From Escherichia coli 042 (GTDB lineage Bacteria; Pseudomonadota; Gammaproteobacteria; Enterobacterales; Enterobacteriaceae), in NCBI RefSeq assembly GCF_000027125.1, contig NC_017626.1: a stretch of DNA of 64,000 nt; one strand, written 5' to 3'. Of the stretch, positions 8,929 to 9,218 are shown piece after piece (positions within the stretch are counted from its first letter, which is position 1; each line of letters opens with the position of its first letter). A program made the translations under genes and the position numbers. The notes beneath the pieces are model-generated. The model saw nothing but the letters and a program-made list of their open reading frames with translations, had not been told where the DNA came from and did not search any database.

Positions 8929-9218
8929 AGTTTACTAACGGTCATTTTGCAGTGAAGCCATTTACCGTTTTTTATCGACCAGATAATCTGTTCTCTGATG
9001 GTAATCCACCCCTAACCTGTTGCTTTAGTTATTCATTTCCTGTCTCACTTTGCCCTAATACCCTACGTTAAATGTTACCAATTTGTTGCTTTTGATCACA
9101 ATAAGAAAACAATATGGCGCATTTGTGCGCATTTTTCAGAAATGTAGATATTTTTAGATTATGGCTACGAAATGAGCATCGCCATGTCACCCTACATCTC
9201 ATAAGAGGATCGCTTCTG

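Follow-up and report, generated by a model that had tools for sequence, protein, structure and literature searches.

The interval 9084-9140 of the analysed window (64,000 nucleotides of Escherichia coli 042) is assigned, with a probability of roughly 0.9, to the upstream half of the sigma-S-dependent promoter of csiD (glaH), under the control of cAMP-CRP and CsiR. A sequence-only reading of this DNA had put forward two motifs in the interval, a CRP-like element and a 10-bp tandem direct repeat, as candidate regulatory elements of csiD. The first is the published CRP site and the second overlaps a footprinted CsiR box, but the repeat fails as an operator unit. The same reading had held that the motifs could not be assigned from sequence alone, which is borne out since neither the CRP-like element nor the repeat is statistically unusual.

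The csiD promoter is already known: experiments from 1998 to 2018 defined it together with its CRP site and CsiR boxes. What the present analysis adds in practice is a precise map of these published elements onto the window and a correction to the view of the 10-bp tandem repeat as an operator unit. The new points are comparative only and incremental, namely an array of three boxes common to Pseudomonas, a displacement of the promoter, and three alleles within E. coli, and may interest builders of glutarate biosensors and students of sigma-S promoter evolution. From the literature, in part as cited or tabulated in later papers, come the binding of CsiR and its response to glutarate, the consensus of the boxes, the position of CRP and the -10 and -35 hexamers. 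Derived here were the exact placement of these elements in the window, their conservation, the frequencies of the alleles and the chance expectations.

Locus and operon

The gene downstream of the motifs (9219-10196, plus strand) encodes a protein with the Pfam CsiD domain (PF08943, E = 2e-151) and, according to its RefSeq label and K-12 mapping, is the glutarate dioxygenase gene glaH, csiD and glaH being the same gene. Mapping of the K-12 annotation onto the window placed lhgD at 10215-11483, gabD at 11506-12954, gabT at 12968-14248, gabP at 14512-15912 and csiR (glaR) at 15933-16595 on the plus strand, showing that the operon glaH-lhgD-gabDTP-glaR is intact. The last gene of this operon therefore encodes CsiR, the cognate regulator of csiD, which is a GntR-family (FCD) repressor (Pfam GntR PF00392 and FCD PF07729) with 96.8% identity to K-12 glaR. 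Among 5,426 complete E. coli genomes, 5,381 had a match to the 381 bp around the motifs, in every case beside glaH.

For comparison among enterobacteria, 40 sequences from upstream of csiD were aligned; they represent at least 12 genera, among them Escherichia, Pseudocitrobacter, Citrobacter, Salmonella, Yokenella, Pluralibacter, Shimwellia, Trabulsiella, Hafnia, Leclercia and Enterobacter. No gaps occur between 9114 and approximately 9182. A Shine-Dalgarno sequence, AGAGGA (9204-9209, plus strand), was read from the window and is conserved in this alignment.

Core promoter and transcription start

As tabulated in PMC5650638, which cites Marschall 1998, the csiD promoter consists of a -35 hexamer TGCGCA and a -10 hexamer TATTTT separated by a 17-bp spacer. 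Exactly this arrangement is present on the plus strand of the window, with the -35 hexamer at 9126-9131, the spacer at 9132-9148 and the -10 hexamer of the sigma-S-dependent promoter at 9149-9154; the sequence around 9084-9140 reads AATTTGTTGCTTTTGATCACAATAAGAAAACAATATGGCGCATTTGTGCGCATTTTTCAGAAATGTAGATATTTTTAGATTATGGCTACG. The K-12 promoter csiDp, sigma-S dependent and activated by cAMP-CRP from -68.5 (Marschall 1998; Germer 2001; Metzner 2004), is the same locus, with identical -35 hexamer, 17-bp spacer, -10 hexamer, CRP box, A-rich tract, 5' UTR and operon, and differs from the window by two substitutions, at 9117 and 9121.

The transcription start is placed at the A at 9161 (plus strand), 7 nt past the -10 hexamer. 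The same base puts the centre of the CRP site at -68.5, and thus the start derived from the tabulated hexamers and spacer and, separately, that derived from the cited CRP position agree to the base. Relative to this inferred start, the two motifs occupy -77 to -61 and -44 to -25, near enough to the promoter to act and outside the transcript, in keeping with the proposal that they are candidate operators. Two other -10 candidates were rejected: TAGATT (9155-9160), which would put the CRP centre at approximately -74.5, and TACGAA preceded by GC (9166-9171), which would put it at approximately -85.5, both in conflict with the tabulated combination of TATTTT, TGCGCA and a 17-bp spacer.

The genome-wide supplements of Cho 2014 and Kim 2012 contain no start-site entry for csiD, csiD is unmentioned in a sigma-38 promoter preprint, and a full-text literature search for the csiD promoter sequence gave no matches. 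csiDp escaped a sigma-70 consensus scan, an outcome expected of a weak promoter dependent on an activator and sigma-S. No Rfam family scored above threshold in 8800-9400, and the predicted fold of the csiD 5' UTR was unremarkable (z-score = -0.06) with respect to an RNA element. A transcript from 9161 would open with AUGGCUACGAAAUGA, a leaderless ORF of four codons (MATK).

The CRP site and the A-rich tract

The CRP-like element TGTTGCTTTTGATCACA is present at 9084-9100, where it had been reported. In the canonical TGTGA-N6-TCACA frame the site reads GTTGC-TTTTGA-TCACA at 9085-9100, with 3/10 core mismatches; the identification as a CRP element stands, but its parse as TGTTG, six bases and ATCACA had displaced the left half by one base from this register. 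Of the two halves, the right one (GATCACA) is perfect and the left one (GTTGC, 2/5 matches) is weak. The 22-bp frame of the cAMP-CRP site spans 9082-9103 around the 16-bp core at 9085-9100, and its centre at 9092.5 lies at -68.5 from 9161. This is the position at which the CRP site of csiD is centred according to Germer 2001, as cited in PMC2859248, and on this agreement the element is equated with the known CRP box. CRP binding and cAMP dependence of csiD are reported by Marschall 1998 and Germer 2001, according to later papers that cite them.

As a match to the consensus, the core is no better than chance, CRP-type sites with at most 3 core mismatches being found 173 times in the window compared to 214 expected. 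Across the 40 enterobacterial sequences, however, the right half of the CRP box, GATCACAA (9094-9101), is approximately 100% conserved, and the distance from TCACA to the ATGT at the -10 box is 46 or 47 nt in every sequence, spanning at least 12 genera. A fixed distance of this kind is expected if CRP phasing matters.

The TCACA element could alternatively be used by a regulator other than CRP, either FNR, whose half-site is related to that of CRP, or Lrp or H-NS. Such a reading would account for the poor left half and the chance-level frequency of the core; furthermore, Lrp and H-NS are reported co-regulators of csiD (Knorr 2018, PMC6265302), and a partial FNR match, TTGAT-N4-ATAAG, is found at 9092-9105. 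This FNR match has one good half only, however, and the cited CRP position coincides exactly with the site centre given the tabulated -10 hexamer. The near-complete conservation of the right half at a constant distance from the -10 box across at least 12 genera also speaks against a different regulator, and we consider this alternative extremely unlikely. CRP is retained as the protein bound at this site.

Adjacent to the CRP site is an A-rich tract, AAGAAAACAA (9103-9112, plus strand; -58 to -49), which, judging from its position, is a candidate for the distal UP-element half-site that the title of Germer 2001 names for csiD. Within it, AAACAA (9106-9111; -55 to -50) is 90-100% conserved in the enterobacterial alignment.

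As a separate observation, the 9-mer TGTTGCTTT on the left side of the CRP box (9084-9092) recurs exactly 66 bp upstream, at 9018-9026. By chance, 381 bp should contain approximately 0.3 exact 9-mer repeats, and a third E. coli lineage has not kept the upstream copy.

The CsiR operator

The CsiR operator of the K-12 csiD promoter was determined by hydroxyl-radical footprinting as two boxes, TTGTN5TTTT and ATGTN5TTTT, lying 6 nt apart (Knorr 2018, PMC6265302). The same study reported a Kd of 10 nM for CsiR and csiD DNA, release of CsiR by glutarate, and two secondary CsiR sites whose sequences and positions are not given in its text. Occupancy of the csiD promoter by CsiR in vivo has been confirmed by ChIP-seq, and nothing on the DNA operator of CsiR was found in a 2025 glutarate biosensor paper. 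The footprint primers MS170 and MS171 map to 9084-9105 and 9183-9204 of the window, so that the footprinted fragment corresponds to 9084-9204 and its analysed range, G22-G86, to 9105-9169. The SPR primers of that study map to 9120-9135 and 9159-9177, and the SPR fragment reaches 9177.

Primary box 1, TTGTGCGCATTTT (9123-9135, plus strand; -38 to -26), is an exact TTGTN5TTTT lying over the -35 hexamer, and primary box 2, ATGTAGATATTTT (9142-9154, plus strand; -19 to -7), conforms to ATGTN5TTTT and lies over the -10 hexamer. The boxes are 19 bp apart from start to start, and both boxes and the 6-nt gap are identical to the K-12 operator of Knorr. Only one pair of published boxes with a 6-nt gap occurs in the window, where single-box matches number 13 compared to 7 expected. 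Box 2 is part of a larger central box, GAAATGT-AG-ATATTTT (9139-9154, plus strand), which forms an imperfect 7-2-7 palindrome. Box 1 lies within the interval 9084-9140 and overlaps the repeat; box 2 is almost entirely outside this interval and was missed by the sequence-only reading.

Conservation among enterobacteria follows these elements. The segment 9122-9136, TTTGTGCGCATTTTT, which carries box 1 and the -35 hexamer, is 60-90% conserved, box 1 being kept as TTTTRTRCGCRTTT. Segment 9140-9156, AAATGTAGATATTTTTA, with box 2 and the -10 hexamer, is at least 90% conserved, and so for the most part is 9159-9178, TTATGGCTACGAAATGAGCA, which spans the inferred start (-2 to +18) and in which 9159-9172 reaches this level.

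A candidate third, or secondary, CsiR box, ATGGCTACGAAAT (9161-9173, plus strand), lies 6 nt past box 2. Owing to its phase and its homology to the Pseudomonas sequence ATGGCGATATTTT, it is proposed to be a secondary site of Knorr, and is probably a weaker third CsiR box. Across at least 12 enterobacterial genera, the block TTATGGCTACGAAATGAGCA and the CsiR central box are about equally invariant. The left part of the block is in phase with a Pseudomonas CsiR-type box, and CTACGAAATGAGCA is specific to enteric bacteria.

The core expression for the central box, applied to the minus strand of the window, also matches AAGTTGATATTTT at 26752-26764, between the ORFs 25631-26590 and 26947-28149, which, judging by the K-12 gene order, are probably nrdF and proV. 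With approximately 0.7 chance matches expected in the window, this intergenic match is probably fortuitous.

Proposed mechanism of csiD regulation

Under the favoured reading, cAMP-CRP bound to the asymmetric site at 9082-9103, centred at -68.5, would activate RNA polymerase, probably helped by the adjacent A-rich tract. CsiR would bind box 1 over the -35 hexamer and box 2 over the -10 hexamer, and probably a weaker box 3 at the start. Since the boxes lie over the two hexamers, bound CsiR is expected to occlude the promoter, and release of CsiR by glutarate would relieve this occlusion. Promoter occlusion relieved by glutarate is the most likely mechanism.

The 10-bp tandem repeat

The tandem repeat was recovered by a repeat finder as it had been described, with GCGCATTTGT at 9117-9126 and GCGCATTTTT at 9127-9136 (plus strand; -44 to -25) and 9/10 matches between copies. 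It is lineage-specific. Simulation of windows with a first-order Markov model, allowing at most one mismatch, yielded 1.5 +/- 1.2 period-10 tandems of at least 9/10 identity per 64 kb, compared to 2 in the window. The only other such tandem in the window is GCGCGCCAGT GCGCACCAGT at 44539-44558.

If the repeat were itself an operator, bound by CsiR or by another direct-repeat regulator with one subunit per helical turn, its 9/10 identity, its period of one helical turn, its location at -44 to -25 and its overlap with a footprinted CsiR box would all be accounted for. Its frequency does not exceed the chance level, however, and no part of the promoter is less conserved than its first copy, GCGCA (9117-9121) being 0-40% conserved among the 40 enterobacterial promoters. 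Furthermore, the published CsiR boxes recur every 19 bp rather than every 10, and K-12, the strain that was footprinted, has only 7/10 identity between copies. On conservation, this alternative is largely refuted already, and we regard it as very unlikely. The repeat as an operator unit, the part of the sequence-only reading that is not upheld, is within chance expectation, with a first copy that is poorly conserved and polymorphic in E. coli. Box 1 of the CsiR operator, and not the repeat, is the element retained at this position.

Short diagnostic queries against the 5,426 complete E. coli genomes distinguished three alleles. The window allele, with first copy GCGCATTTGT, is found in 947 genomes (~17%) and has 9/10 copy-to-copy identity; the K-12 allele, with first copy TCGCTTTTGT and second copy GCGCATTTTT, is found in 3,225 genomes (7/10); and the third allele, with first copy TAACTTTTAT, in 1,113 genomes (5/10). 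Outside the Escherichia lineage with the window allele, copy-to-copy identity is 1-7/10, and about 4/10 in other genera. The window differs from K-12 by T to G at 9117 (-44) and T to A at 9121 (-40), which raise the identity from 7/10 to 9/10. The first-copy GCGCA thus results from two substitutions in a minority E. coli lineage. Box 1 and the -35 hexamer impose constraint on the second copy and on the closing TTGT of the first (9123-9126), and the repeat is a by-product of drift in the remainder of the first copy, which has come to resemble the second in approximately 17% of E. coli. The tandem repeat is therefore a strain-specific coincidence and not a functional unit.

The repeat doubles as an inverted repeat, GCGCA-TTTG-TGCGC, which a terminator scan flagged on both strands. 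The small hairpin GCGCATTTGTGCGC was flagged only because GCGC is self-complementary in the window allele.

In the third allele, carried by approximately 20% of E. coli genomes, CsiR box 1 begins with TTAT and not TTGT. This suggests that the G of TTGT in box 1 is dispensable or that the strength of box 1 varies among lineages. The three discrete alleles are clustered in 9117-9125, within 170 bp that are otherwise invariant.

The window allele (G9117, A9121) might itself be functional, retuning CsiR repression or sigma-S selectivity in its lineage. Its two bases complete a perfect GCGCA-N4-TGCGC inverted repeat and also give rise, immediately upstream of the -35 hexamer, to a box-like element, ATGG-N5-TTGT. 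A functional role would fit with the persistence of three discrete alleles in 9117-9125, each in roughly 950 to 3,200 genomes, and with the change of a box-1 base, TTGT to TTAT, in the third. The segment is, however, unconstrained across genera. This points to neutral drift in the stretch that separates the UP-like tract from box 1, and a functional allele is considered unlikely. Drift outside the constrained boxes of the csiD promoter is preferred.

Comparison with Pseudomonas, Halomonas and other operators

The comparison was extended to the csiD upstream regions of Pseudomonas (24), Halomonas and relatives (16) and Serratia (2), with the central box as the anchor. The form AAAATGTAGAYATTTT is almost universal in these regions. 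An expression for the core of the box matched within 300 nt upstream of csiD at 72 of 80 loci, with 0 matches elsewhere in 623 kb. Furthermore, positions 9138-9154 of the window fit 16 of the 17 positions of the cross-species MEME motif A(A/G)AAATCTAGA(C/T)ATTTT (Thompson 2019, bioRxiv 557751). The central box is the operator core and is conserved from Escherichia to Pseudomonas and Halomonas.

In P. putida KT2440 the CsiR footprint covers the -10 and -35 hexamers of csiD (Zhang 2019, PMC6667623), which are given there as TATTTT and TAGACA with a 17-bp spacer. Similar to E. coli, P. putida has the central box AAAATGTAGAYATTTT with flanking TTTTGTSGC and TTATGGC in the same 19-bp register. Across Pseudomonas, TTTTGTCGC upstream and ATGGCGATATTTT downstream occupy the register held in E. 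coli by box 1 and ATGGCTACGAAAT. The hexamers, however, are positioned differently: E. coli has its -35 hexamer in box 1 and its -10 hexamer in the central box, whereas P. putida has the former in the central box and the latter in the next box downstream. The hexamer positions thus place the E. coli promoter one 19-bp unit further upstream on the box array than that of P. putida. Other differences are the divergent transcription of csiR and the lack of a CRP box at the csiD promoter in Pseudomonas, and published P. putida hexamers that are near the sigma-70 consensus, unlike a sigma-S promoter. Halomonas carries a consensus TTGACA 17 nt upstream of the central-box TATTTT, an arrangement like that of E. 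coli.

Operators of the FadR subfamily of GntR regulators bind a dimer on a short inverted repeat, and the E. coli central box is likewise a 7-2-7 inverted repeat. The repeat is perfect in Pseudomonas (AAAATGT-AG-ACATTTT) and retains 5/7 symmetric positions in E. coli, as expected if CsiR acts as a GntR/FCD dimer. Unlike FadR-subfamily operators, the flanking boxes keep one good half-site each, and the array consists of direct 13-mers at 19-bp spacing.

These comparisons are compatible with a tentative model, which we consider possible and somewhat doubtful. In this model, three CsiR boxes (9123-9135, 9142-9154 and 9161-9173) would form an array at 19-bp spacing along which the core promoter has shifted in evolution, with the -10 hexamer in the central box in Enterobacteria and Halomonas, and the -35 hexamer there and the -10 hexamer in box 3 in Pseudomonas. 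The three E. coli alleles would tune repression, and CsiR would have its third site in the invariant +1 to +18 block, which might also serve another role specific to enterobacteria.

Observations on the surrounding DNA

The glaH DNA of the window is 94.8% identical to that of K-12, compared to 96.4-96.8% for neighbouring genes. CsiD of Pseudocitrobacter (L003, L004 and L009) is 96-99% identical to the window CsiD, as close to it as, or closer than, CsiD of other Escherichia species, and the csiD upstream regions of Pseudocitrobacter differ markedly from the window outside the conserved boxes. This pattern of identity to Pseudocitrobacter and K-12 may hint at recombination or transfer at glaH.

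Upstream of csiD, the window contains an ORF of 750 aa (6630-8882) whose RefSeq matches are alpha-amylase family glycosyl hydrolases; it is intact in the window, whereas ygaQ of K-12 is a pseudogene. Past the end of this ORF lies a strong hairpin terminator (8893-8920). Homology between the window and NZ_CP134718.1 (L002, 1-840) starts at approximately 9020. In approximately 1,100 E. coli genomes a mere 680 bp or so lies between the end of the tmRNA gene ssrA and the downstream glaH, compared to roughly 33 kb in K-12. The window DNA upstream of approximately 9020, together with the DNA between ssrA and glaH in K-12, therefore belongs to a lineage-variable island next to ssrA.
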